Source: a virus. From it: a stretch of DNA of 12,078 bases. A program made the translations under genes and the position numbers. Numbering within the stretch: position 1 is the stretch's first letter; every line of letters begins with the position of its first letter. This document shows, in pieces, positions 1-12,078 of this stretch. The notes below the pieces were generated by a model that did no database searches, had not been told where the DNA came from, and saw only the letters and a program-made list of their open reading frames with translations. The stretch is from UHGV virus genome UHGV-0261881; one strand, 5' to 3'.

Positions 1-246
1 GCGGGTAGGTGTACCAAAAATAATGGCGTCGTAATCGGCCAGTTCTTGCGGGGTTGCAACCGGTGCAGTTTGCGTTTTACCGCCTGCTTTTTCAAATAAT
101 TGCGGCGGCATGGTTTCCGGTACACGCTTAACGACAACTTCTGCGCCATCCACTTTGCTTGCACCCTCAGCGACTGCGCGTGCCATCGTTTCAATATGTC
201 CGTACATGGAATAATAAAGCACTAGTATTCTTGCCTTAACACTCAT
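1..246 (-). CDS. wrbA: NAD(P)H:quinone oxidoreductase WrbA, N-terminal 82 codons (3' end runs off the window); first 8 codons supplied by the inserted element
   Basis: Minus-strand translation from ATG at 246-244 gives [82 protein letters not shown]. From VLYYSMYGH onward this matches the WrbA N-terminus as I recall it ([31 protein letters not shown]...). SD aggaga sits 8 nt upstream on the minus strand (plus 254-259). Confidence 0.92.
216..225. other. attL junction (host wrbA side | element side), crossover within or next to AAAGCAC
   Basis: Sequence ggaataatAAAGCAC|tagtattc: left part matches wrbA, right part does not. The same AAAGCAC is found at the right junction. Confidence 0.7.
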
Positions 247-297
247 ATCATTGTTCTCCTGTTCAATGAACCACTTAGATAAGCATAGTCCGAAGAT

Positions 298-1941
298 ATG
301 AAGCTGCTAGTGACATACATCAGGTGGAGTACTAAAGAGCAAGACTCAGGAGACTCCTTAAGACGGCAAACAAACCTCATTGATGCTTTCTACTCTAAGC
401 ACAAAAATGATTATTACCTTCTTCCTGCTCACAGATACGTTGATAAGGGTAAATCTGGTTTTCACCAGCAACATAAGAATCAAGGTTCTGACTTCAGACG
501 TATGTTTGAAAATGTTATGTCTGGGGCTATTCCAGAAGGTTCCTTGATTGTTGTAGAGAACTTTGACCGCTTCAGTAGGGCTGATATCGACACAGCTATA
601 GATGATGTCAGGCAGATACTGAGGAAAGGAGTCTCTATACTGACTCTGGGAGATGGTGAACTCTACGACAAATCAGCATTAACAGACCCTGTGAAGTTGA
701 TTAAGCACATCATCATAGCTGAGCGAGCACATCAGGAATCTCTTGTTAAACAAAAGCGTATAGCTCAGGTCTGGAACCATAAAACACAGCTTGCAAGAGA
801 ACTTAAGAAGCCTATGGGTAAGCAAGCCCCCGGATGGTTAGAGCTATCAGATGATGGTTCACACTACATCGTTGATGAAGATAAAGCGTCACTGGTGAAT
901 ATCATCTATGACAAGCGTCTTTCTGGTATGTCGATGTTTGCTATCTGCAAATGGCTAAACGAACAAGGTTACCCGACCATTAATCAGCGTAAGGTCAGAA
1001 TATCCAAGACTAAGAAACCTGATGGTAACTGGTCAGCATTAAGCGTTAAACACATCCTGACTTCACGAAGTGTATTAGGTTACCTTCCCGCTAAGATTTC
1101 TACAGAAGACCGTAAAACAGTGTTACGTGAAGAAATTGAAGGGTTCTATCCTCAGATTGTCACAGACTCTAAGTTTTACGCTGTACAGCAACTGTTAGAG
1201 GAAACAGGGAAGGGGAAAACATCCAGCGGTGAACACTGGCTATATGTGAACATACTGAAGGGGCTTATCCGTTGTAAGTGTGGGCTTGTAATGACTCCTA
1301 CAGGGATACGTAAACCCGTTTATCAAGGTACTTACCGTTGCAATGGTAATAAGGAGTCCCGTTGTAGCTACGGTACAGTGTCCAGAAAGTTACTTGATAC
1401 ACAGCTTTGTAGTCGTCTGTTTAGCAAACTGTCACAGCTACACGATGAAGCTACCGATACAGCTAAATTAGATGAACTGCAACGCAGACTAAACACCGTT
1501 GATAGTGAACTGGAAAAACTCACTGAGACGCTGATACAGCTTCCTAACATCACTCAGATTCAAGAAGCACTACGGGTTAAACAGGAAGAAAAAGATGAAC
1601 TGATAGTTCAGTTATCACGAGAAAAGGCGAGGGTAAAATCTGTATCAAGCTTGGATTTAAGCGGTCTTGATATGGAGTCTGTAGAGGGGAGAACTGAAGC
1701 CCAGATTATTATTAAGCGTTTGGTGAAAGAGATTGTTGTTTCTGGTAATGAAAAGCTGGTGGATATATATCTTCACAATGGAAATATGATTCGTGGTTTT
1801 CCTCTTGATGGTAAAGATGACCACACCTTAACGCTTGAAGAAGCAACCGATGAGATGCAGTCATTAGATGATATGCTTATTTTTGGTGAACCAGTAACAA
1901 GGATTTATCCTGCTGGTGATATGGAAGAGGTGGACGCTTAG
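298..1941 (+). CDS. Large serine recombinase (integrase), 547 aa
   Basis: N-terminal catalytic motifs YIRWSTKEQ (catalytic Ser), [15 protein letters not shown] and ERAHQESL. Cys-rich stretch IRCKCG...[14 protein letters not shown] consistent with a recombinase zinc ribbon. Coiled-coil-like C-terminal region ([21 protein letters not shown]). ATG start at 298. Position next to the att junction. Confidence 0.88.
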
Positions 1942-1944
1942 GAA

Positions 1945-1960
1945 TTGGTATTGTTACCAA
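1945..1960. terminator. Hairpin between convergent genes (TTGGTA-ttgt-TACCAA), possible bidirectional terminator without a clear U-tract
   Basis: Perfect 6-bp inverted repeat with a 4-nt loop, exactly filling the gap between the integrase stop (1939-1941) and the minus-strand gene stop (1961-1963). Confidence 0.3.
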
Positions 1961-2734
1961 TCAATAAGTGCCCTTCTTATTCGGATTCACACTAAATTTC
2001 CGTAAAGCATTACCCGACTTAAGCACTTTTGAAGCCTGCTCATTAGCTGAGGCTGTGAAGGTGCTTACACCATCTTTCACCGTGACATTTTTAGAGCAAT
2101 TGCTACGGACCCTTAGCGCTTCATCAGATAGCTCAGATGCTGAGTAGCTATACAGTTCCTGACACATCAACATAGGTGCGTTATTGCGTTCAGTAGTCAC
2201 GTTACCCGCATTCTTCTTAGAAGTTGCGCCACCATCATTTGTGGTAGCGGCCTTTCCAGTTGCAGCAGAGATATCAGTCTGACCAACAACAGCTTTAAAG
2301 TTAATTTCCTGAAAAGTTAGCTGGATTCTTAGACCATTTGAAATACCAACATCTTTAGATGCTTTAAAGCTTGTAATAATGGAATCATCAATTTTAATTC
2401 CGTCCTTACAGATAACAGAAATAATTTGCTTCTGGTCACGCCAGCTTTCAAGAGTGTCAATGAAGTTTTCTACTAATTGACCCTGACGAGTTAATAATAA
2501 GCTTCCTTCATAGCCAACTACAACGACACCACTAATAGTGATTGTTCTGGGTGCTCTTTGCACATTATCTGTGACGGTTTGCCCTGATTGCATGTTCTGT
2601 GTAGTCACCTGCATAGGGCTATCAAATTCCATGTTTTCAGTTGCTGATAAGGTTAAGAAGGCATCTACATTGTCTCTTAAGTGGAAATAGATGCCATCTT
2701 TGCCACTGTAACGAATCTGATTAGAGTAAATCAT
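1961..2734 (-). CDS. Hypothetical protein, 257 aa; weak resemblance to a phage distal-tail/structural protein given its position after the tape-measure-like gene
   Basis: Long ORF. The track's TTG start at 2755 is replaced here by the ATG at 2734-2732, which has a strong SD (aaggag, 7 nt upstream on the minus strand). Beta-rich-looking sequence ([15 protein letters not shown]). No catalytic motif recognised. Confidence 0.6.
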
Positions 2735-2813
2735 TAAATTCTCCTTTGATTTCAAAGGCTTAGTGTATTTTAATCATTTTTAACCAAGCCTTTGATATAT
2801 AAGTATTTTCTCT

Positions 2814-2895
2814 GTTAAGCGTGAGCTACGTAAATTCTATTTTTCAGTGCAGGTATTAACTTTGCTTTATTCACGTAGCATTCGACTATTCATAG
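2814..2895 (-). promoter_or_regulatory. Promoter-like cassette, copy A, upstream of the 257-aa gene
   Basis: About 37 bp nearly identical to copy B (taagcgtgagctacgtaaattctatttttcagtg). On the minus strand it reads ...ctgaaaaaTAGAATttacgtagc..., a -10-like TAGAAT with no good -35. Dyad arms GCTACGTAAAT (2825-2835) and ATTCACGTAGC (2869-2879) flank and overlap the -10. Confidence 0.45.
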
Positions 2896-2968
2896 TTGAA
2901 TCGTCATACTAGATAAAGATTAATAGATTGCCATGTGTGGCAATAAATATTAGTAGTTCTAACATTGT

Positions 2969-5044
2969 TTATTCCTCTGGGTAAGCTGAGCTAATCAAGG
3001 TATCTTCCTGCATACGATTAATATGCGATGTGGTTCTTTCATCAATAACCTTTCCATCAAGTACCGTCTGAGTTGTGATATTGATTGTCTGAGGCTGAAT
3101 GTTTACTGACGGCTTGATAACCTTTAAATCTTGTGTGAATGTTTCCACTCGACCTTTCAGATTATTTAATGCTTCAGGTGAAAACTGTGGAACATCTTTT
3201 GATTTGCCCTGAACCATAGCCCATAAAACAGCGGCTAAAGAGTTCATGTCACCAGACAATGCTTGGTCTGTAGGTTCCACCTTTGACCTTACAACTTTGT
3301 CAATTGGATTATCTGACTTACTCATCTGACGTTCATAGAACGGTTTAACAATGGAGTTAATCACATCAGTTGCCATACCGACAATCATTACTTTGGTAAT
3401 TGCATCAGCTACAGATAATTTTCCTTTACCACCTTCAACACTACCGGAACGTGAATTAATTCTTCCTGCTGCTGTATTTGCTACATTTCCAAGCGTGGAA
3501 ATAGCCCTAATTAAGCTCCAGATGCCACCTACAGCACCAATACCAGACCTTACAGCAACAATACCAGCAAGTCCCTTTAATGCACTTAACAGGCCATTTG
3601 CGATACCATCAGCTACAGCTTTTTGAGTGTCATTTAATTCTCTGTAAGCAAGGGTCACTCTGTCAAAGAATCCCTGCACTCGGTAGCTAATCGTGGTTAA
3701 ATCATCAATACCGTTTGACATACTTTTCATCAAGTCGCCAAAATGTTCACCAAGATTTTTAGATTGCCCACCTAGCGAATTAAGTAAATTAGTCAGTGAC
3801 CTTGTAAAGTCTGTTAAACCTTCCTGTGAACCGTCGAACATTAAGGCCAGATTATTATTCCATGAATTAGAAAGGCGGCCTAACTGCGTCTGAGTAGAGT
3901 TAATAATCTTTTCCCATCCACCAGCTTTATCAATCATCCTTCCCATTTCAGCGGATACTTTAGGAAGAACATCTTTAGAAAGAACTTTACCGTCTTTCAT
4001 AGCCTTGTCTAATTCTTCTGTAGTCATCCCAAGGCTTCTGGCAAATAACTGGAAAGCACCTGCCATTCTGTCACCTAATTGACCACGTAGCTCTTCAGCC
4101 TGAATCTTCCCTTTAGAAGCCATCTGCTCGAAAGCTTTCAGAATCCCGTTAATTTCATCAGTACTTAAACCCATTAATCTGGATGTGCCAATCACATTAC
4201 TAAATAAGGATTCTTTCTGGCCTGCATCCATATCACCAGCACCAGCGGAAAACTTAGCAAAACTGCTTAATGTTTCAATCTGGTCAACACCAGTATTATT
4301 AGCAAGATTCTTAACAAATTCTGTAGCTCGTTTAGCACCTTCATCACCTAAAACGAATTGTGCCGCTCGTTGTGATGCTTCTTTTTTCAGACCAACCTCC
4401 ATAATCTTCCTGTAAGCTTCTAAGGCTGTCTGAAAACTATAAATGGCTGTACCTGCTTTGATTGCACTTGTAGCTAATACATCCAGACCATTCGAAGCAT
4501 TTTCACTGTGATTATTTTTGCTGGTGGTCTTGTTAAACTTAGAAAGTGTTTCACGAAGAGACTGATTTAATTTTGCTAACTCACGATTAAAAGCTTCGTT
4601 TCCAAGTGTCTTGGATTTACTACTTAATGCGTAAAACTGACTCTTAATGTATTTCTCGACAATTGGGTTAAGACCTTTCAGCTTGCTCATATTCGCTGAA
4701 TAAGCTGCTGTGATTGCTCTGTTTCCGCTAATTCGTGGTTGCCTTGATTGTTTTGGAGGATTAACAGTGTCATTAAATCTGGTGGCAAACTGAAATGCTT
4801 TTGTGCTTCTTGCTCTCTGTTCAATCTTGTCAAAGGTCTTATTAAACTTCCTTTCAAGCTGCCCTAAAGAACTTGTCAGATTGCTGTCAAGTTGCTTGGT
4901 ATCGACCTTAAACGCTCTATTCAAATTGCGTTCAATTCTTTGTGCTGACTGCAAAGCTGCCTTTTCAACTCTTTGCAAGCCCTTAATAACGTTTTCACTG
5001 AAACTAAGTTCAACGATAAAACTATCAACTGTGAATTTGCTCAT
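2969..5044 (-). CDS. Tape-measure-like protein (phage tail length tape measure domain), 691 aa
   Basis: Central block GLSTDEINGILKAFEQMASKGKIQAEELRGQLGDRMAGAFQLFARSLGMTTEELDKAMKDGKV resembles the tape-measure core domain. Gly/Ala-rich hydrophobic segment (GLLSALKGLAGIVAVRSGIGAVGGIWSLIRAISTLG) and coiled-coil-like N-terminus are typical of tape measure proteins. ATG start with SD agaggtg. Confidence 0.65.
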   Translation of the reverse strand: MSKFTVDSFIVELSFSENVIKGLQRVEKAALQSAQRIERNLNRAFKVDTKQLDSNLTSSLGQLERKFNKTFDKIEQRARSTKAFQFATRFNDTVNPPKQSRQPRISGNRAITAAYSANMSKLKGLNPIVEKYIKSQFYALSSKSKTLGNEAFNRELAKLNQSLRETLSKFNKTTSKNNHSENASNGLDVLATSAIKAGTAIYSFQTALEAYRKIMEVGLKKEASQRAAQFVLGDEGAKRATEFVKNLANNTGVDQIETLSSFAKFSAGAGDMDAGQKESLFSNVIGTSRLMGLSTDEINGILKAFEQMASKGKIQAEELRGQLGDRMAGAFQLFARSLGMTTEELDKAMKDGKVLSKDVLPKVSAEMGRMIDKAGGWEKIINSTQTQLGRLSNSWNNNLALMFDGSQEGLTDFTRSLTNLLNSLGGQSKNLGEHFGDLMKSMSNGIDDLTTISYRVQGFFDRVTLAYRELNDTQKAVADGIANGLLSALKGLAGIVAVRSGIGAVGGIWSLIRAISTLGNVANTAAGRINSRSGSVEGGKGKLSVADAITKVMIVGMATDVINSIVKPFYERQMSKSDNPIDKVVRSKVEPTDQALSGDMNSLAAVLWAMVQGKSKDVPQFSPEALNNLKGRVETFTQDLKVIKPSVNIQPQTINITTQTVLDGKVIDERTTSHINRMQEDTLISSAYPEE

Positions 5045-5057
5045 TCATGTTTCACCT

Positions 5058-5140
5058 CTTTAAGCGTGAGCTACGTAAATTCTATTTTTCAGTGTGGATA
5101 TTAGCTTTACAGATTTCATGTAGCACACATAGGATTCGAT
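5058..5140 (-). promoter_or_regulatory. Promoter-like cassette, copy B, immediately upstream of the tape-measure-like gene
   Basis: Same core as copy A. -10-like TAGAAT on the minus strand (plus 5079-5084) sits about 35 nt upstream of the ATG at 5044. Lies between an intrinsic terminator (5160-5201) and the gene start. Confidence 0.5.
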
Positions 5141-5159
5141 AGAAGACTATCTCATATAC

Positions 5160-5201
5160 AAAAAAGGGAGAAACTACCGATATCACTCGATAATCTCTCC
5201 C
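5160..5201 (-). terminator. Rho-independent terminator after the 67-aa gene
   Basis: Minus strand reads GGGAGAgattatcgagtgatatcggtagttTCTCCC followed by TTTTTT: 6-bp GC-rich stem plus U-tract, about 25 nt downstream of the stop at 5227. Confidence 0.6.
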
Positions 5202-5226
5202 GTTGATTTTCACCCAACCAATCTTT

Positions 5227-5430
5227 TTACCTAACCAGATAATAATTACCATCTTCACCGACAATCTGACAATCACTTGGTAATTTATCAAGACACCATT
5301 TAGCGATTCTTCTGATTCTGTTATTTTGCTTAGAGGTGGATGATTTGATTCGTTTTGGTTTGTTGGGTTGTTCTTTCAGTCGTTCACTAATTGCCTTGAT
5401 GAGTTCATAGCGTTCTGTTAAATCAATCAT
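5227..5430 (-). CDS. Hypothetical small basic protein, 67 aa
   Basis: ATG start with a strong SD (aaggaggtg). N-terminus MIDLTERYEL is paralogous to the upstream 102-aa protein (MSDLTERDKR). Confidence 0.55.
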   Translation of the reverse strand: MIDLTERYELIKAISERLKEQPNKPKRIKSSTSKQNNRIRRIAKWCLDKLPSDCQIVGEDGNYYLVR

Positions 5431-5455
5431 TCACCACCTCCTTTTTAATTCGATT

Positions 5456-5764
5456 TTAATCTAAGTAGTGTATACACTCGACACCGCGTTCATTCTTTTG
5501 AATTTCATAACGTAGTGAAAGACCAGTTTGATAATACACAGTATCAAGCTTATTTATCTTATCCTTGAGTTCGATAAGAAGTCGCGTTAAATCATCCCGA
5601 CCATCACACTTTAGTTCGGCAAGAGGCTTTTCTTCCATACGACCAATAAGATATTCAGTGACCTCCTGAATATCACCAAGAGTCATTTTAATTTCATTGA
5701 ACCTATCTTCAAAAGGCTCCATCACCCATTTCATTCTTTTATCGCGTTCTGTTAAATCACTCAT
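5456..5764 (-). CDS. Hypothetical small acidic protein, 102 aa
   Basis: ATG start. Its start overlaps the stop region of the upstream 234-aa gene (5764 versus 5773), suggesting translational coupling. Shares the M-x-DLTER N-terminus with the 67-aa protein. Confidence 0.6.
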   Translation of the reverse strand: MSDLTERDKRMKWVMEPFEDRFNEIKMTLGDIQEVTEYLIGRMEEKPLAELKCDGRDDLTRLLIELKDKINKLDTVYYQTGLSLRYEIQKNERGVECIHYLD

Positions 5765-5772
5765 TATTCACC

Positions 5773-6477
5773 TCAAACAGCCTTGCTAAATTCTCGTGGA
5801 ACACTCAGAAAATCATTGAAGCTGATAATCTGTGCCAACTCTTGACGGTACTCCTTAGCCAGCGCTTGATGGTCACTAATCAGCTTAGCCAGTCTTGATT
5901 TCAGCAATTTAATCTCATTTTCTCTTGCTTTCATCAGTTTCTCTTTGGCAATTTCTTCAAGCTCAGCTTGTGATTTATCAGCAACAATTAGAGACAGTTG
6001 ATGTGGCGCTCTGATGGCCCTTTCCGTACGAATAACCCTTTGACCTTCTGGTAAATCTGCAATCACTTTACCAATCTCTACAGGGTCATACCCCCAACCG
6101 TCACGGTCTAGTCGAGAGAAATAAGCATAAGGATTGGTTTGAAGCTCCATCAAAATAGCCATTTCGTCGATTTCGTCTTCAAGCTTGGACTGAATTTTCT
6201 CGTAAACACTTCTCATTGCTTCTTGAGAGTCTTTAATAGCTTGGAAATATCGGCGTTGCAGCTTCAGTTTCAAATCAAGCTCACATTTCTCATTCATCGA
6301 AAAATCAATTTCAACTCTTGGAATCTCGAGTGGTTCTGGTGGAATATATGGACCTTTATTTACTTCGTGTGATTCCCGCCAAGCTCTATCAAAAGATTCA
6401 CGCAAAGTTAATTCGTGAATATCAAGTGCACTTGGTCTGTTCTCAACAATCATTTCATTTTCATCACGGATAGCCAT
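5773..6477 (-). CDS. Hypothetical protein, 234 aa, charged and coiled-coil-rich
   Basis: Long ORF with ATG start. Its SD (agaagagga) lies inside the 3' arm of an 11-bp hairpin. No motif recognised. Confidence 0.6.
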   Translation of the reverse strand: MAIRDENEMIVENRPSALDIHELTLRESFDRAWRESHEVNKGPYIPPEPLEIPRVEIDFSMNEKCELDLKLKLQRRYFQAIKDSQEAMRSVYEKIQSKLEDEIDEMAILMELQTNPYAYFSRLDRDGWGYDPVEIGKVIADLPEGQRVIRTERAIRAPHQLSLIVADKSQAELEEIAKEKLMKARENEIKLLKSRLAKLISDHQALAKEYRQELAQIISFNDFLSVPREFSKAV

Positions 6478-6487
6478 TAATATTTTT

Positions 6488-6556
6488 CCTCTTCTAAGAT
6501 AATTTACGTTTCAGTTTTTAAAAAGCACACCTGACAACCTACGAACTTAGAAGAGG
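6488..6556 (-). promoter_or_regulatory. 5'-UTR hairpin sequestering the SD of the 234-aa gene
   Basis: Perfect 11-bp inverted repeat CCTCTTCTAAG (6488-6498) / CTTAGAAGAGG (6546-6556) with a 47-nt loop. On the minus-strand mRNA the 3' arm contains the SD, 10 nt before the ATG. Confidence 0.5.
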
Positions 6557-6594
6557 CTTAAAAGGCGTTTGCCAAGTATGCTTTTTAAAAGCTG

Positions 6595-6631
6595 AAAAAA
6601 GCCCTAGATAACTAAAACGCTATAAAGGGCT
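6595..6631 (-). terminator. Rho-independent terminator ending the upstream minus-strand operon
   Basis: Minus strand reads AGCCCTttatagcgttttagttatctAGGGCT followed by TTTTT(T). Confidence 0.5.
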
Positions 6632-6949
6632 AAGGTGAAGAAATTAAAACATCTAAAGGATTCAATAACGAATGAACAAGAGTACTTTTCGAGATGACCT
6701 CTCAGGTTATATAAGAGGTCATGTAGCGAAAAGCATTGCACCTTTCCAAATCAGAATATCCATCCATCGGATTATTGAAAATATGATTTTAGGAAGAGTT
6801 GCTCTTCCCTATAATTAAAATTATGTCATACTTAAGGTTATTTGTCAACAGCCTTTTAACAGATTGGTAACATCAATTTCTATTTACTGTGTTGCCTACC
6901 CAGCAACCAACAAATAAGCCAAGCAACGTCCAAGCAATTATTAAGCCCA

Positions 6950-7279
6950 TTAGTGAACCCTCACAGAATCCGTAACCAAAATATTGTCGCTGTACAGGAT
7001 TGTCACAGCACCTTTCAAAAATTGCTCTGGGGAAATACTGTATTTGTTCGTTTGCTCGATAACCAATCTTTTCATGTTGCTGTCTTTAATTGGTAGCATC
7101 ATTCGAGGCTCGTTAAACTCCACCGACTGAATAAAGTCAGAGATGCTTTCCGCATTATCAGTCATTAACTCTAACAACTTATCAAAGTCAACGCTAACAC
7201 CTACATCAGCGAAAGCCTGAATCATCATGGCGGTGTCGGTATCAATAAAAATCTGTAGTGGGAAGTTTAATTCTCTCAT
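6950..7279 (-). CDS. Hypothetical protein, 109 aa
   Basis: ATG start with SD aaggag. Lies immediately downstream (minus strand) of structured repeat copy 1. Confidence 0.55.
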   Translation of the reverse strand: MRELNFPLQIFIDTDTAMMIQAFADVGVSVDFDKLLELMTDNAESISDFIQSVEFNEPRMMLPIKDSNMKRLVIEQTNKYSISPEQFLKGAVTILYSDNILVTDSVRVH

Positions 7280-7304
7280 TTCTTAAAATCTCCTTTTTAC
7301 CAGA

Positions 7305-7430
7305 CCTCCTCAATCGCTCTGTAACGAGCTAAACAGTCTTTTTCAGGGGTAGCCTGTACAGTGGTATTACCCACCCTAAAATAAGGTAGTTTTTTGCGTT
7401 AGAATGCGATTGAGAGCGTCTGAGAAGCTG
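7305..7430 (+). repeat. Structured inverted-terminus repeat (SIR), copy 1, between the HNH-like gene and the 109-aa gene
   Basis: Aligns base-for-base in the same order with copy 2 (same orientation) and with the reverse complement of copy 3. Shared blocks GCTCTGTAACGAG, CAGGGGTAG, TACCCACCCTAAAATAA, GTTAGAATGCG and AGAGCGTCTGAGAAGCT. Termini are mutually complementary (CTCAATCGC / GCGATTGAG). Confidence 0.75.
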
Positions 7431-7435
7431 TTTTT

Positions 7436-7723
7436 CTAATTTCTCTTAAAGTCTCGGACTTGCATAAGATTTTTTGGTCTGGTATCGGCTCTGTTACCAT
7501 TTCGATGGATAATTTGCTTGTTGGATTGATAGCCATGATAAAGGAACCAGACAACATATTTCACGTAGAAAGTATATCGGCCTATATTAAATGTTTTGTT
7601 GCCGTAGTCGTCGGTATTTATCGTGACTGACTCTCCATCAGACCAGCACAGGGAATCACTGGATTCATCATAGATAAGGTGTTCTGTAAAATATCGTCTA
7701 ACATCTTCATGCCAAGGTTTCAT
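7436..7723 (-). CDS. Small HNH-family endonuclease-like protein, 95 aa
   Basis: C-terminal YVKYVVWFLYHGYQSNKQIIHRNGNRADTRPKNLMQV resembles the HNH motif of phage-type HNH nucleases (consensus-like ...W..hnG...IDHINGN..DNR..NLR). ATG start overlaps the upstream gene by 4 nt. Confidence 0.55.
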   Translation of the reverse strand: MKPWHEDVRRYFTEHLIYDESSDSLCWSDGESVTINTDDYGNKTFNIGRYTFYVKYVVWFLYHGYQSNKQIIHRNGNRADTRPKNLMQVRDFKRN

Positions 7724-7935
7724 AAAACCTCCTCACCCCAATAACCTAATTCAATCTTGTGACGCTCAAACCATTCCGGTTTAACTGCTGTTTTCAGTAC
7801 TTCATTTGGGTCAATGGCTTTAATGAAAATATCTTTTGAGTTATGGATGTCACCGAATCCGTTTCCTTTAATCAGGAGGTCGGAGATGTAGCGAATCATT
7901 TTATCTGTGTGGTATTCAAAGGTAACGCATAGCAT
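7720..7935 (-). CDS. Hypothetical protein, 71 aa
   Basis: ATG start overlapping the upstream stop (TAATG). Part of a tightly coupled operon. Confidence 0.5.
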   Translation of the reverse strand: MLCVTFEYHTDKMIRYISDLLIKGNGFGDIHNSKDIFIKAIDPNEVLKTAVKPEWFERHKIELGYWGEEVL

Positions 7936-8213
7936 TAAACCTCCATCGCTAACTTGTGAATCTTAAGACTCAATAGACGGGCAATATCAATTTTAAAGCC
8001 GTTAAGTGCCTTCAAAGTATCTAAAGCGTCCTGACTAATTCGGATGTGCTTACGACCTTTAGAGACTGGATATTTAAGTAAATCCGACTCAGTGACCTCT
8101 TTAGCAATTGCAAGTTGCATAATAGTTTGATGAGGTAAGTTAGTTGCTTGTTTAATTCTGGTAAGCTCGTTAAAAGCTTCCTCTGAAATACGGGTTAATG
8201 TGTGTTTATTCAT
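7935..8213 (-). CDS. Putative ribbon-helix-helix (RHH)-like DNA-binding protein, 92 aa
   Basis: N-terminus KHTLTRISEEAFNELTRIKQATNLPHQTIMQLAIAKE fits a strand-helix-helix pattern like CopG/Arc-type RHH. A second similar pattern (HIRISQDALDTLKALNGFKIDIARLL) follows. Stop of the upstream gene directly abuts its ATG. Confidence 0.4.
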   Translation of the reverse strand: MNKHTLTRISEEAFNELTRIKQATNLPHQTIMQLAIAKEVTESDLLKYPVSKGRKHIRISQDALDTLKALNGFKIDIARLLSLKIHKLAMEV

Positions 8214-8768
8214 TTAAAATTCCTCTGTAACTAAATACGGGTCAAACTCGAAATCTGGTTCACTAATCGTAAGGCTGATATTGCCCACTTCCGCATGATG
8301 ATTAATTGTCTCAATAACTTTCATGCAAATAGTGGCTAAGTTAGCGCAATATTTATCGCTTGGTAATTCATAGCTAAGTCTGGTTGCTTGTCTTTGAAGA
8401 TGGCTCGTCACTGTGCTTGAGCTAATCTTATCAAGGCTTCGAAGCAAATAGAAAATCTTCCGGTGATAGTTATCCCTTCCAAAGCTGCGACAAGTGCCGA
8501 TAATTACATCTTCAATTCGTGATGGTAGTTGCTCGTAAGAATCAAAGCCCATCAAGAAAGTTTTTAAAGTATTTTCTTTTTCTTTGCGTGTTGGCATATA
8601 TCTGTCTCGTGGCGTAATGCTACGAATGACCGCTTCAATGTTCTTACGTTCGGATTTGCTAAAGGTTGGGACTTCGTAGCTGGTGGGGGTGTCTGTGTAG
8701 CTGTAACCGTTGCTTCTGTTTCTTGCTTTGCTCTCTTCAAGAAACTTTTGAAAATCTTTGTCGTTCAT
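8214..8768 (-). CDS. Hypothetical protein, 184 aa, first gene of the operon
   Basis: ATG start 43 nt downstream of a consensus-like promoter. No motif recognised. Confidence 0.6.
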   Translation of the reverse strand: MNDKDFQKFLEESKARNRSNGYSYTDTPTSYEVPTFSKSERKNIEAVIRSITPRDRYMPTRKEKENTLKTFLMGFDSYEQLPSRIEDVIIGTCRSFGRDNYHRKIFYLLRSLDKISSSTVTSHLQRQATRLSYELPSDKYCANLATICMKVIETINHHAEVGNISLTISEPDFEFDPYLVTEEF

Positions 8769-8817
8769 TCATAAGCTGGCCCTTATAATTGTTAATTTCC
8801 TGTTAACTATATATACA

Positions 8818-8846
8818 ATCTTAGCAGTTTCAAAGGCTAATGTCAA
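8818..8846 (-). promoter_or_regulatory. Sigma70-type promoter of the minus-strand four-gene operon
   Basis: Minus strand reads TTGACA (plus 8846-8841), a 17-nt spacer, then TAAGAT (plus 8823-8818). Confidence 0.6.
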
Positions 8847-8854
8847 GCATTTTT

Positions 8855-8884
8855 TTAACATTTGATTAACATTTATGGTATAAT
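8855..8884 (+). promoter_or_regulatory. Extended -10 promoter firing rightward into the ORF-poor region
   Basis: TTAACA (8855-8860), 18-nt spacer, TGgTATAAT (8876-8884). Divergent from the operon promoter. Confidence 0.55.
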
Positions 8885-8917
8885 GGTTTTATGAGAGAGG
8901 GAAAATATAAAGGCGTG

Positions 8918-8975
8918 GCTATGAGGTTTATTCGATAAACCGAATCAACTATGAGAATGGTCACATGGTTATTGC
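8918..8975 (+). repeat. Direct repeat Rep2, copy A (contains cgaatcaactatgag)
   Basis: Homologous to 10493-10592 in the same orientation (ctatgagRtt ... cgaatcaactatgag ... aatggttatt). Confidence 0.6.
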
Positions 8976-8986
8976 ATTGCACACAG

Positions 8987-9082
8987 GCCTCTTCAATCGC
9001 TCTGTAACGAGTTAAATGGCCTCTTCAGGTCAACTCATAAGGTCAGGTACTTTTTGTATCAGAATGCGATTGAGAGCGTCTT
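8987..9082 (+). repeat. Structured repeat (SIR), copy 2 (shorter), forming the leader of a small ORF
   Basis: Shares the 5' block cttcaatcGCTCTGTAACGAG and 3' block AGAATGCGATTGAGAGCGTCT with copy 1. The central part differs. Terminal 8-bp complementarity TCAATCGC / GCGATTGA. Confidence 0.7.
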
Positions 9083-9095
9083 ACAAGGAAAACTA

Positions 9096-9272
9096 ATGGT
9101 AAACCTCCCTCCTGAGCTGGGGTCACCTGATGTTTGGGCTGGTGGAGGTGTGGGTCTGATTGCAGGCCTGCTACTTCGCTACGTCCTCGTCAGAGTGCTT
9201 GTTGTCTTTAAACTGTTCGGTCGTACATGGACGCTTGACCTTAAGGATAATGACCACACAGACCCCCGTTAA
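9096..9272 (+). CDS. Putative small membrane protein, 58 aa
   Basis: ATG at 9096 with SD aagga 7 nt upstream. Translation MVNLPPELGSPDVWAGGGVGLIAGLLLRYVLVRVLVVFKLFGRTWTLDLKDNDHTDPR has one hydrophobic helix and a charged tail. Weak hairpin (CCCCT/AGGGG, 9286-9309) downstream. Confidence 0.35.
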   Translation: MVNLPPELGSPDVWAGGGVGLIAGLLLRYVLVRVLVVFKLFGRTWTLDLKDNDHTDPR

Positions 9273-9391
9273 ACCCCCTTCAAAACCCCTATACCATCTC
9301 GTACAGGGGTATCTTTAGCATTTTGTGCTATCTATTAAAAAATAGCTTGACAGAACCGGAAAGCTGTATTTATCAAGTATTCACCTCTCTG

Positions 9392-9564
9392 ACAGTGATT
9401 TCTAAAAATACTTATTTTTCAATGAGTTGTAATCACCCATATATAGAGAACTGACAAGTCTCTTCACAGAGAACTCTGTAACCTTAACAGTAATTTCTAA
9501 AAATACTTATTTTTCAATGAGTTGTAATCACCCAATATATAAGGCTGTCCAGTACCTTCACAGA
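9392..9564 (+). repeat. Tandem direct repeat, two units of ~80 bp with a 95-bp period
   Basis: Units 9392-9470 and 9487-9564 share a ~55-bp near-identical core (acagtRatttctaaaaatacttatttttcaatgagttgtaatcacccatatata) and a downstream cttcacaga. A GCTCTGTAAC-like motif lies between the units (9474-9482). Confidence 0.7.
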
Positions 9565-10375
9565 TGACTTCAAGCCTTCTTAGCTATCCACTAAGCGGGA
9601 GAAGAGCGATAACCCCAGAGAGGGAAGCTCCCTTCTAATTGGTATTGTTATGAGGATGCTTCATCCGAATCATCTACCAATCCCTAAACCGACTCTCTTA
9701 ACCAGCCCTTTACGTTATTCGTTCACAGTGTTGATAAGTGGTTTTGCCCTCTGTTTCTGTTATCATCGGGCTTACCTTATCAGGGCTTTGAAATGCCCTG
9801 TAACTCCCCTCTTAACGGGAGAGAAAGAACATAGTGACCCCAAGCGAAGCGCCCCTCTAAAAAGATTTTTTAGCTACTTTGTTTAAAAGCACATCAAACG
9901 ATACATTTTATTGATTTAGGTCAAAGACAAAAGCATTGACAAAATGGTAAGATTGTTCACATGACCTTACTTAACAGATTCTTAAGAGCTTTGAAACGGC
10001 CTATTTAACAAGGTCACTACCTACGGTTCTTCGTTTTCCTTCTTTCTAGGTAGTCATCTGTTAAGAGTTTTTCAGTCTTACTCTTAAGAATCACTGTTAA
10101 GATGATACTCTCCCCTTCGGGTTATATCGTATCTCTTCTCCCGTTAAACACCCCTTCCTAACTATCTACATAATCACTTCTAAGAATCTTACAAGGTAAT
10201 ATCCAGACCTCTTATAGTTGACCTGATACAGAAGTTTTACAGGCATACTCTCTAGGTTACTAATCGGGTGCTATCAAGGGCCACTAAACGAGAGAGGGGA
10301 TATGTGACCATAGGGGAACCCCTCCTGTTAAAAAGGCCACTTAGAAGTCTGAGACTTTAGTAAAATCTGTGAATA

Positions 10376-10492
10376 TAGCTTCTCAGGCGCTCTGTAACGC
10401 ATTCTAAGCGATTTTACCCCTTTATTTTAAGGTGGGTGGTACATCCCTATAGACTACCCCTAAAAATGGGGTTAAAACTCGCTACAGAGCTT
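10376..10492 (-). repeat. Structured repeat (SIR), copy 3, inverted relative to copies 1 and 2
   Basis: The reverse complement of 10371-10500 aligns along its length with copy 1 (blocks GCTCTGTAGCGAG, AGGGGTAG, TACCACCCACCTTAAAATAA, GCTTAGAATGCG, AGAGCGCCTGAGAAGCT). Termini are complementary (GCTCTGTAGCG / CGTTACAGAGC). Confidence 0.7.
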
Positions 10493-10592
10493 TCTATGAG
10501 ATTAGCTTCATGAAGTAATTCATTACTGAATCACCTAATCGAATCAACTATGAGGCTTGGTAAGATTGTGCAAAATCTGTACAATGGTTATT
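10493..10592 (+). repeat. Direct repeat Rep2, copy B
   Basis: See Rep2 copy A. Here it abuts SIR copy 3. Confidence 0.55.
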
Positions 10593-10850
10593 TGGCTTCT
10601 GAAAATTTTTACAAAAATCATAGTAGCCCTCTTTGAATCTCATCTTCCCCGAATCTTCAAAAATATCTGACAGATGTCTGTAGCTGCTAAGTACCCGTCA
10701 CACCAGCTATGTGACCCCCTTTGCAAAAAAGCCAAATATCTATTGACTTTCTATGTGAATTGCTATAAAGGCATCTATCTAGACCTTTAACTGTATAAAT
10801 ACACATGACAACAAACGCCCGTTAAGTGTCTATATAAAAAGGTAGCTGTA

Positions 10851-10895
10851 GCTATAGACAACAATTGTGATAATTGATTTAATGGCTATAGACAA
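10851..10895 (+). promoter_or_regulatory. Two direct GCTATAGACAA repeats upstream of the small recombinase gene (candidate operator or binding sites)
   Basis: Identical 11-mers at 10851-10861 and 10885-10895 (34-bp spacing). Related TATATAG-like motifs at 10828-10836 and 10914-10922. Confidence 0.4.
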
Positions 10896-10935
10896 GCAAG
10901 ACAGACCTTTGTTGACTATATAGAGAGATAAGAAC

Positions 10936-11505
10936 ATGCGTACATTCCTTTATGCTCGTGTATCAGTTGATGACCTCACCACACAAAACCAAGTAGAAGC
11001 TGTTAAACGTGCTGGTTATGAAGTCAAACCTTCACGAGTGATTGAGGAAGTTATTAGTGGTGCTACACCAGCTATGGACAGACCACAATTTGTAAAGCTG
11101 GTGGATAAGCTGGAAGAAGGTGATTGTCTTGTAGTGACCAAGATTGACCGCTTAGGAAGGGATAACATTGATGTACAGAAGACCGTCACAATGTTACTGG
11201 ATATGGGTGTGAAGCTAATTTGTTTAGACCTGCCTGTAAAAGACCTTTCAAGTGCTGAAGGTAAACTTATCCTTCAACTATTCAGTACCTTTGCAGAGTT
11301 TGAACTTAACCGCATCAGAGAGCGAACCAGAGAGGGCTTAGAACGAGCTAAAGCACAAGGTAAGGTGTTGGGTCGTCCTGTAGCTAAAAACACTACAGAG
11401 GCCGTTTTAGAGCATAAGGCAAAGGGATTGTCACAAAGTCAGGTTGCAAAGCTTCTGAATCTCTCTGTGAGAACGGTTAGCCGTCACTGGACAAAGACAC
11501 TGTAA
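10936..11505 (+). CDS. Small serine recombinase (resolvase/invertase family), 189 aa
   Basis: Motifs YARVS (catalytic Ser), VVTKIDRLGRD and ERTREGLERAKAQGKVLGRP, plus a C-terminal helix-turn-helix (GLSQSQVAKLLNLSVRTVSRH). ATG start. Confidence 0.88.
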   Translation: MRTFLYARVSVDDLTTQNQVEAVKRAGYEVKPSRVIEEVISGATPAMDRPQFVKLVDKLEEGDCLVVTKIDRLGRDNIDVQKTVTMLLDMGVKLICLDLPVKDLSSAEGKLILQLFSTFAEFELNRIRERTREGLERAKAQGKVLGRPVAKNTTEAVLEHKAKGLSQSQVAKLLNLSVRTVSRHWTKTL

Positions 11506-11526
11506 GAAACTTAGTAGCATCTTCAT

Positions 11527-11550
11527 AGCCTCCTTCATGGGGGCTTTTTT
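11527..11550 (+). terminator. Rho-independent terminator after the small recombinase gene
   Basis: AGCCTCC-ttcat-GGGGGCT stem (one G-U pair) followed by TTTTTT, about 22 nt after the stop. Confidence 0.6.
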
Positions 11551-11558
11551 GTATCCAC

Positions 11559-11626
11559 TCTCTAAGCGTGTCCTACGCAAAATCTCCTGAACACTTACCC
11601 ACCCTCAGAAATAACTTTCACGTAAG
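11559..11626. repeat. Diverged third copy of the promoter-like cassette (copy C), containing a TTACCCACCCT block shared with the SIR repeats
   Basis: ctctaagcgtgtcctacgcaaaatctc resembles the cassette A/B core. The loop contains ttacccaccctcagaaataa, similar to TACCCACCCTAAAATAA in SIR copy 1. 3' arm ctttcacgtaag. Confidence 0.45.
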
Positions 11627-11937
11627 AAACTGTTAAGCAGCTTGATAGTTATTCTGTGTGACCAAACATCTATATATCGTTATATAGTCCTGTATATAGC
11701 ACTTTTCTAGGAGTCGAGAGAGGGACGACTAACACGATACAGTTTACCCTGAAAAGAGACTTCACAGATTCTCTATATATTTCAATAAGTTAGGCTAAAA
11801 AGAGACTATACCGATACTGCATAGAATCTGTGTAAAACTGCTTAGATACTTGGGAAAATGCCTTTAAATTGAATAGGGATTCACCTGATATTGTCCTGTT
11901 ATTAACAGGTAGTTGAATGTACGTGTTTAGCTATGTA

Positions 11938-11947
11938 AAAGCACCAG
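11938..11947. other. attR junction (element side | host wrbA side)
   Basis: Sequence ctatgtaaAAAGCAC|cagaactttagccat: the right part is the reverse complement of the native wrbA start ATGGCTAAAGTTCTGGTGC. Confidence 0.7.
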
Positions 11948-12078
11948 AACTTTAGCCATTTCTAACCACTCCTCGTGTTATCTCTATTCCGTAGCGATTC
12001 GCTACCACTTATTTAAAGATAAGACGTCCTTTTCAGAGTGCAAATTTCACAACCACTTATTTGATTTATAACAACTTT
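11945..12078 (-). other. wrbA: Displaced native wrbA start codon (11959-11957), first codons, SD and native upstream region
   Basis: Minus strand reads gaggagtggttagaaATGGCTAAAGTTCTGGTGC..., giving MAKVLV, the native WrbA N-terminus. It is separated from the rest of wrbA (1-222) by the element. Confidence 0.8.

Follow-up and report, generated by a model that had tools for sequence, protein, structure and literature searches.

A tape measure protein and a tube initiator at the locus

We analyzed a stretch of 12,078 nucleotides recorded as UHGV virus genome UHGV-0261881 (the whole stretch is called the window hereafter), which holds an integrated island carrying tail genes related to those of Felix-O1-like phages (genus Felixounavirus). 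Comparison with the uninterrupted wrbA site of Escherichia coli placed the inserted element at positions 226 to 11937 (11,712 bp), in agreement with the 11.7 kb given in an initial annotation made from the sequence alone. The tail-side module spans positions 1961 to 6477 and, as that annotation listed, contains five open reading frames (ORFs) on the minus strand, coding for proteins of 234, 102, 67, 691, and 257 amino acids (aa). The 691-aa product had been described as an orphan protein resembling a tail tape measure protein (TMP).

Profile searches bore out the identity of the 691-aa protein (positions 2969 to 5044, minus strand). It matched the Pfam family TMP_3 (PF20155; 3e-20, 73.1 bits against a cutoff of 41 bits), the NCBIfam model TIGR02675 (tape_meas_nterm; 1e-16, 60.5 bits against a cutoff of 21.35), and PHROG 4036 (1e-98), as well as the tape measure gp017 of phage Bas63 (PDB 9ndy_F; 1.6e-75). 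By these matches, the protein is a genuine TMP and a divergent homologue of Felixounavirus gp17. Residues 1 to 691 align end to end with residues 1 to 734 of the TMP of phage garuso at 28% identity, and the island protein is 44 aa shorter than the phage TMP. The stretches conserved with garuso are the first 45 or so residues, the TMP_3 core (approximately residues 300 to 370), and the last 35 or so residues, which end in SSAYPEE. Mean identity between island and phage TMPs reaches 0.73 over the 30 columns that open the alignment and 0.70 over the 30 that close it, with about 0.6 in the TMP_3 core, and it falls to 0.02 to 0.3 across most of the remaining alignment. Six related islands carry two TMP allele types that are about 52% identical to each other, both with phage-like ends. 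All island TMPs examined measure 688 to 710 aa, against 735 to 742 aa in the phages. In the Bas63 structure, the TMP touches the puncture apparatus (gp21) and the hub (gp20) with its C-terminal 25 residues (PMC12609058); the preserved parts of the island TMP would therefore be those that need to dock on phage-made components.

The TMP is not an orphan, because the neighboring 257-aa protein (positions 1961 to 2734, minus strand) is, by homology to Bas63 gp18, a Dit-like tail tube initiator, and the two genes are adjacent in the same order in Felixounavirus genomes. The tube-initiator ORF ends at position 1961 and codes for 257 aa from an ATG at position 2734, or for 264 aa from a TTG at position 2755. 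Its product matched the Pfam family Dit_like (PF21821; 2e-20, 73.4 bits against a cutoff of 24.2) and the Bas63 "Tube initiator protein gp018" (PDB 9ndy_A; 1.4e-121), and it is 77% identical to the garuso homologue. In the N-terminal tube-like domain, aa identity to the phage protein is about 95% for the window copy and 74 to 82% for other members of the island family. The C-terminal 80 or so residues are only 45 to 53% identical to the phage protein, yet they are conserved among the islands. The tube initiator of Bas63 sits on the baseplate hub and nucleates the tube; as a hexamer, it fits the sixfold tube onto the trimeric hub, with a C-terminal extension of about 100 aa through the baseplate (PMC12609058). 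In garuso, the TMP and tube-initiator genes (118 and 119) adjoin in the order seen in the island; the phage genes abut, whereas those of the island are parted by a 234-nt spacer with a repeated element. At the level of homology and gene order, then, the module is a TMP and tube-initiator pair.

None of the island ORFs matched capsid, portal, terminase, tube, or sheath families in Pfam, PHROGs, or NCBIfam. The initial annotation had seen no major structural or packaging gene in the element; this stands for the families just named and needs amending for the 257-aa tube initiator. Recognized virion genes thus number 2 of 13, counting the 12 ORFs (the default listing threshold was 60 aa) and a 58-aa membrane protein gene, and the genes for autonomous virion production are missing.

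Relation to Felixounavirus phages

In a megablast search of about 50,000 phage records, the window matched more than 200 Felix-O1-like phages. The matching stretch, at positions 2201 to 2710 (510 nt), codes for the N-terminal domain of the tube initiator and shows 92 to 95% nucleotide identity (93% to Felixounavirus over the 510 nt). Sensitive alignment to the whole garuso genome added the TMP segments 3954 to 4135 and 4910 to 5053, at 79 to 80% nucleotide identity, as well as the tube-initiator gene at its 3' end, and gave no further nucleotide match. By tblastn against garuso, the two tail proteins were the only matches among the 12 island proteins, leaving the other 10 unmatched. Judged from nucleotide identity, there is recent DNA exchange between the island and the lineage of these phages. 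The sequenced Felixounaviruses are virulent, have genomes of 84 to 90 kb, and yielded no detectable lysogeny genes. Following the Odn paradigm, we also considered an anti-satellite nuclease of the phage that would share a domain with the 184-aa or the 234-aa island protein, and Felixounavirus gave no matches.

Integration site and boundaries of the island

Window positions 1 to 225 and 11938 to 12078 are the two halves of one E. coli wrbA site and overlap by 10 nt in the alignment; the empty site is the state of most E. coli genomes. The 10-nt core that joins the halves is imperfect, reading AAAGCACTAG at attL (positions 216 to 225, within the 5' end of wrbA) and AAAGCACCAG at attR (positions 11938 to 11947, with the original wrbA start following). 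The insertion point lies in wrbA codons 5 to 8 (window positions 216 to 246 and 11938 to 11961). The island provides a replacement start codon and N terminus (MSVKARI...), which keeps wrbA open, and the original start (MAKV...) remains at attR. wrbA is a classic prophage insertion site, and the wrbA flanks of the window matched records of Shiga toxin (Stx)-converting phages in the megablast against phage records.

The integrase is a large serine recombinase of 547 aa (positions 298 to 1941, plus strand) with the Pfam domains Resolvase, Recombinase, and Zn_ribbon_recom and a match to PHROG 95 (integrase; 3e-78). As is general for satellites, the element is integrated, has its own recombinase and att sites, and is missing from many strains. 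The window contained no tRNA genes, no Rfam family above threshold, and no significant match to the PADLOC models of defense systems.

A family of related islands

Among 5426 complete E. coli genomes, 494 (about 9%) had relatives of the tail module (1961 to 6477), in up to five places per genome. Strains carrying the island include FAM21845 (CP017220) and M19 (CP010221). We compared the architecture of seven members in detail. From the left, their common order is serine recombinase, tube initiator, TMP, a gene for 67 to 72 aa, an optional gene for 102 aa, a gene for 234 to 236 aa, and a gene for about 108 aa; it continues on the right with an HNH endonuclease or a helix-turn-helix protein, genes for about 71, 93, and 184 aa, an ORF-poor region, and variable cargo. 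The same 11- to 12-kb architecture recurs in hundreds of genomes. Two integration sites are used, wrbA and yecE (DUF72), and the yecE recombinase is 34% identical to that of the window. Alleles are reshuffled among members. For seven core genes compared with six relatives, the Nei-Gojobori dN/dS ratios were 0.05 to 0.40 and the frames were intact, which indicates purifying selection. Relatives from Citrobacter freundii and from metagenomes carry the same module of 235-aa, 93/102-aa, and 71-aa proteins, TMP, and Dit-like protein.

Four accessions of the island family were absent from Table S6 of Barth et al., and our literature search found no paper linking satellites with Felixounavirus. The family is apparently undescribed so far.

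Other genes and signals of the tail-side module

The 234-aa protein (positions 5773 to 6477, minus strand) is specific to the islands. The initial annotation had proposed a coiled-coil protein upstream of the TMP; structure prediction is consistent with this, giving an antiparallel coiled-coil hairpin of some length, tipped by a small alpha/beta domain (AlphaFold2 model, pLDDT 78), and the model found no specific fold match. For its family, a set of 5.8 billion proteins yielded 40 close clusters, confined to E. coli, Shigella, and Citrobacter, and a set of 1.8 billion yielded just four distant full-length representatives; no homologue was found among phages. Some homologues are named "transposase" in RefSeq (12400 to 13110 in locus L005 and 13365 to 14075 in locus L013), a name for which Pfam, NCBIfam, and PHROGs gave no support. 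One of those so named has an internal stop and is annotated as a pseudogene.

Between this gene and the TMP gene lie a 102-aa acidic protein (positions 5456 to 5764, minus strand), present in some family members, and a 67-aa basic protein (positions 5227 to 5430, minus strand), present in every member in two allele types. The 67-aa gene occupies the position where a TMP chaperone would be expected. The two genes have a common 37-nt stretch (positions 5404 to 5440 and 5738 to 5774) that takes in the ribosome-binding site and the opening codons (MIDLTER and MSDLTER), and this suggests a duplication or a cassette exchange. A strong intrinsic-terminator-like hairpin, a 15-pair stem followed by a T-run (positions 5166 to 5201, minus strand), closes the 234/102/67-aa operon.

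A 66-nt palindrome-bearing element forms a direct repeat (D2), with one copy upstream of the tube-initiator gene (positions 2815 to 2880, minus strand) and a second upstream of the TMP gene (positions 5060 to 5125, minus strand). It carries an 11-bp inverted repeat, GCTACGTGAA...TTCACGTAGC, and precedes the tube-initiator gene in 7 of 7 family members compared; in 3 of these 7 it also stands ahead of the TMP gene. From its position and symmetry, the element is a candidate operator or activator-dependent promoter. A near-consensus sigma-70 promoter (positions 6848 to 6820, minus strand; 11 of 12 matches, with TG) lies ahead of the 234-aa gene, and between them is an inverted repeat (I1, positions 6509 to 6597) with 29-nt arms that are 86% complementary; in Rfam this hairpin gave only a subthreshold miRNA-like match. 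Taken together, the transcription signals suggest separate units for the 234-aa operon, the TMP, and the tube initiator.

Early-looking genes, ORF-poor region, and cargo

A block of early-looking genes (positions 6950 to 8768, minus strand; ORF calls, Pfam, and PHROGs) codes for proteins of 109, 95, 71, 92, and 184 aa, the 95-aa product being an HNH_3 endonuclease (positions 7436 to 7723, minus strand; Pfam and PHROG). The 184-aa protein has no detectable homologue of known function. In a Citrobacter freundii relative, the same slot (locus L016, 1351 to 2304) holds a 317-aa O-like/DnaD-like replication initiator, with the tail module kept (PHROGs 8102, 270, and 678), and this suggests that the 184-aa slot is a replicon module. 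Divergent from the operon of the 184-aa gene is a gene for a 58-aa single-pass membrane protein (positions 9096 to 9272, plus strand), near-identical to annotated genes in two relatives (L003 and L014). It could be a small lysis-modulating protein like LidI of the PLE islands of Vibrio cholerae.

Apart from the 58-aa gene, positions 8770 to 10935 contain no credible ORF, and the stretch from 9273 to 10935 is a candidate cis-acting region by ORF scan, repeats, and phage matches. It includes a 95-nt tandem duplication (positions 9392 to 9570; two copies, 98% identity over a 48-nt core), a candidate iteron or origin. Felixounaviruses package via direct terminal repeats, reported to be 581 bp in phage Pr103Blw (PMC8303462), and the record of phage NBEco004 opens and closes with the same 628 bp, a direct terminal repeat. 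Window positions 9636 to 9686 (51 nt) are 100% identical to positions 311 to 361 of NBEco004, inside this repeat, and 94 to 97% identical to sequences in phages NBEco005 and EC106. Considered as a structured RNA, the 51-nt stretch was unremarkable (z = -1.2; no Rfam match above threshold).

The motif TCTTAACAG, allowing at most one mismatch, occurs 16 times in the window against 5.0 expected, a count reached in 0 of 200 shuffles. Ten of the 16 copies cluster at positions 8819 to 10333, starting upstream of 9273 and largely within the ORF-poor region. In the phage locus L006, 11 of 13 matches to the motif at the same stringency fall inside the terminal repeat (1 to 628), with 1.4 expected in the locus. 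These motif counts suggest that the ORF-poor region may be a cis-acting mimic of the phage terminal region.

A different repeat, the 12-mer CGTTACAGAGCG, occurs three times on the minus strand (positions 7315 to 7326, 8998 to 9009, and 10388 to 10399) against 0.04 expected. Its copies are part of longer repeats (42 and 37 nt) that precede gene blocks, and they are conserved in family members; one copy was found in the unrelated satellite L012, of the type described by Barth et al., and none in the phage loci. The variable cargo slot near attR holds a small serine recombinase of 189 aa, a resolvase/invertase (positions 10936 to 11505, plus strand). In relatives, this slot contains a Dam methylase, an AP2-HNH endonuclease, a 277-aa protein, or others, and Barth-type satellites also often have a small "resolvase" at the same end (loci compared: L002, L004, L012, and L013).

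Discussion

We interpret the island as a satellite of virulent Felix-O1-like myophages (Felixounavirus) that builds chimeric tails, or at the minimum as a hitchhiker dependent on these phages, and we put the probability of this reading at about 0.65. One of the options offered by the initial annotation was a satellite providing or altering one tail component of a helper phage. We favor this option because the tail genes are homologous to adjacent Felixounavirus genes and keep their order, the remaining island genes are not related to those of the phage, and the island has its own recombinase and att sites. The specific link to a helper that is expected of a satellite is seen in the 93% nucleotide identity in the tube-initiator gene, in the phage-like ends of the TMP, and in the 51 nt that match a Felixounavirus terminal repeat. 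Mobilization by the helper is what we infer from these relationships.

According to our model, infection by a Felixounavirus would induce the island, which would then be copied and packaged by helper functions, possibly via the ORF-poor region that resembles the terminal-repeat region of the helper. The island TMP and tube initiator would replace phage gp17 and gp18 in baseplates, tubes, and sheaths otherwise made by the phage, and the outcome would be chimeric tails about 6 to 7 nm shorter than those of the phage, a difference of 44 aa in the TMP corresponding to roughly 1.5 to 2 of 26 tube rings. The docking termini of the TMP would stay phage-like, and the diverged remainder could let the satellite tell its own tails from the phage's. 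Alternatively, the divergence could serve to evade a satellite-made inhibitor of the phage TMP.

Several observations weigh against this model. The window copy has no recognizable replication initiator, and none of its ORFs matched RepA_N or another replication family. No tail assembly chaperone was found among the small proteins encoded upstream of the TMP, by BLAST against garuso_116 and garuso_117 or by searches of PDB sequences, Pfam, PHROGs, and NCBIfam. Nor is there a programmed-frameshift pair upstream of the TMP gene, the 67- and 102-aa ORFs being 25 nt apart and without overlap. The 66-nt element was not found in garuso, and helper-driven late transcription is thus unsupported by sequence; the possibility that the element is a copied helper promoter was rejected, as its core words do not occur in the garuso genome, and its RNA fold is unremarkable (z = -1.0). 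The 51-nt match was found in only three phage records, and the EC106 copy lies elsewhere in the same noncoding region. For these two reasons, the match is best read as a trace of exchange with Felixounavirus and not as the packaging signal itself. Finally, IMG/VR contigs with the family measure 20 to 55 kb, and no 11.7-kb packaged form was seen among them, a result that is uninformative.

A close parallel is provided by the PLEs, which are islands of about 18 kb with large serine recombinases as integrases. The island shares this type of integrase, with its Resolvase, Recombinase, and Zn_ribbon_recom domains. Both are chromosomal islands; the PLEs parasitize a strictly lytic myophage, and the E. 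coli island would do likewise. Both have a divergent TMP of their own and a baseplate-proximal tail protein and are without tube, sheath, and fiber genes, and each has a TMP that falls short of its helper's in length (by 95 aa in PLE11 and by 44 aa in the island). The PLEs encode a tail assembly chaperone, a TMP, and a baseplate hub protein, which are incorporated into PLE virions instead of the ICP1 proteins (PMC12987554). The resulting chimeric tails, demonstrated by mass spectrometry, Western blotting, electron microscopy, and tmp deletions, are 10 nm shorter, and these tail proteins are needed for 96 to 99.9% of transduction (PMC12987554). The two systems differ in host and phage (E. coli and Felixounavirus versus Vibrio and ICP1), and the island is smaller (11.7 kb) and has neither a clear tail assembly chaperone nor a RepA_N match. 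The identity of its tail genes to those of the helper is also much higher (95% aa identity in the N-terminal domain of the tube initiator), and its likeness to PLE is one of gene content.

The E. coli satellites described by Barth et al. in 2023 (PMC10055350 and PMC10448857) are islands of 10 to 14 kb that likewise encode a TMP and a Dit-like protein. Their representative L012 has the same gene order: integrase, Dit-like protein, TMP, a gene for about 67 aa, more genes, an ORF-poor region, and a small serine recombinase. The Citrobacter copy, with its initiator in the 184-aa slot, resembles the modular replicon swapping reported for these satellites and for the PLEs. The Barth satellites differ in having a major capsid protein, a decoration protein, RepA_N, and mostly a tyrosine integrase at a tRNA gene, and their helper lineage is another one. 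We rejected membership of the island in that family, as tblastn and blastn against L012 matched only the small recombinase (31%), and no capsid match was obtained. The 234-aa coiled-coil protein of the island occupies their capsid and decoration slot; because this slot holds capsid and decoration genes in syntenic satellites, a capsid-directed or assembly-directed role of the 234-aa protein is plausible by analogy. Together with the small upstream proteins, it would belong to the satellite-specific accessory factors, for which a capsid-size scaffold, a chaperone, and a helper inhibitor are candidates.

Like cf-PICIs and P4-like satellites, the island would be an integrated element that depends on virion parts of a helper, and putative tmp genes have been noted in some cf-PICIs (PMC12987554, Extended Data Fig. 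10). It differs from the cf-PICIs in having no Pfam or PHROG match for capsid, protease, portal, terminase, or head-tail connector, and from P4 in that homologues of sid, psu, delta, and the alpha primase were not detected with the same databases. Felixounavirus gp17 and gp18 (Bas63, 9ndy; PMC12609058) are the direct homologues of the two tail proteins, conserved in order, in the TMP termini, and in the N-terminal domain of the tube initiator; the island genes differ in residing in a bacterial chromosome and in the 28% identity of the TMP.

We weighed three other explanations. The island might serve defense only, its divergent TMP and tube initiator being decoys that poison Felixounavirus tail assembly while the island itself is not packaged. 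A dominant-negative subunit would need a TMP that is phage-like only in the docking ends and the core, which is what we see; interference with tail assembly is a documented defense of mobile elements (PMC11364771; Rta, PMC12987554), and the island encodes no packaging or capsid function. However, a decoy would not need full-length TMPs within 3 to 7% of the phage length, in two allele types and under purifying selection, and the ORF-poor region resembles the terminal-repeat region of the helper. Moreover, defense and transfer can coexist, as in PLE. We therefore consider a purely defensive island unlikely.

The other two explanations had been raised in the initial annotation and fared worse. 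That the island is a degraded prophage related to Felix-O1-like phages, its integrase and two tail genes left by chance, would agree with the adjacency and phage order of these genes and with a classic prophage site whose flanks match Stx-converting phage records. Such a remnant would be hard to reconcile with phages that are virulent, of 84 to 90 kb, and without detected lysogeny genes, or with a compact architecture repeated at two att sites across 494 of the 5426 genomes, with intact frames and dN/dS ratios of 0.05 to 0.40 in all core genes tested and with 10 of 12 proteins lacking a phage match. We regard a remnant as very improbable. The related suggestion that the small neighbors might be tail-tube or chaperone homologues of a truncated prophage was not supported either, as profile and sequence searches with the 67- and 102-aa proteins were negative. 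It is equally improbable that a TMP-like protein was recruited to a nontail function, for instance as a membrane-active or secreted effector, with no link to a helper. TMPs are long and helical, and some have extra activities according to references given in PMC12609058, but this TMP is full length and keeps both phage-like termini, including the C terminus that docks on the baseplate. It also comes with a tube-initiator partner and with recent nucleotide-level exchange with Felixounavirus.

The satellite interpretation can be taken further, although tentatively. In this extended form, satellites of E. coli and Citrobacter without capsid or packaging genes of their own would parasitize Felix-O1-like phages. 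Mimicry of the terminal-repeat region would serve their replication or packaging, and the swap of TMP and tube initiator would send functional tails preferentially to satellite particles. The satellites would also act as a population-level defense, and the 234-aa protein would be a new redirector of capsid size or tail assembly. We view this combination as possible but doubtful. If true, it would describe a tail-hijacking parasite, and at the same time a population-level defense, directed against phages of a genus with uses in biocontrol and therapy.

Chimeric tails built by a satellite have been shown in one system only, PLE and ICP1 of V. cholerae (2026), and the island would be an independent case in E. 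coli. The virion structure of Bas63 has been solved (PDB 9ndy), which makes the docking interfaces directly testable. The genus Felixounavirus has applications in Salmonella typing, biocontrol, and phage therapy. At about 9% of complete E. coli genomes, the island family could affect the host range of these phages, their therapeutic efficacy, and gene transfer.

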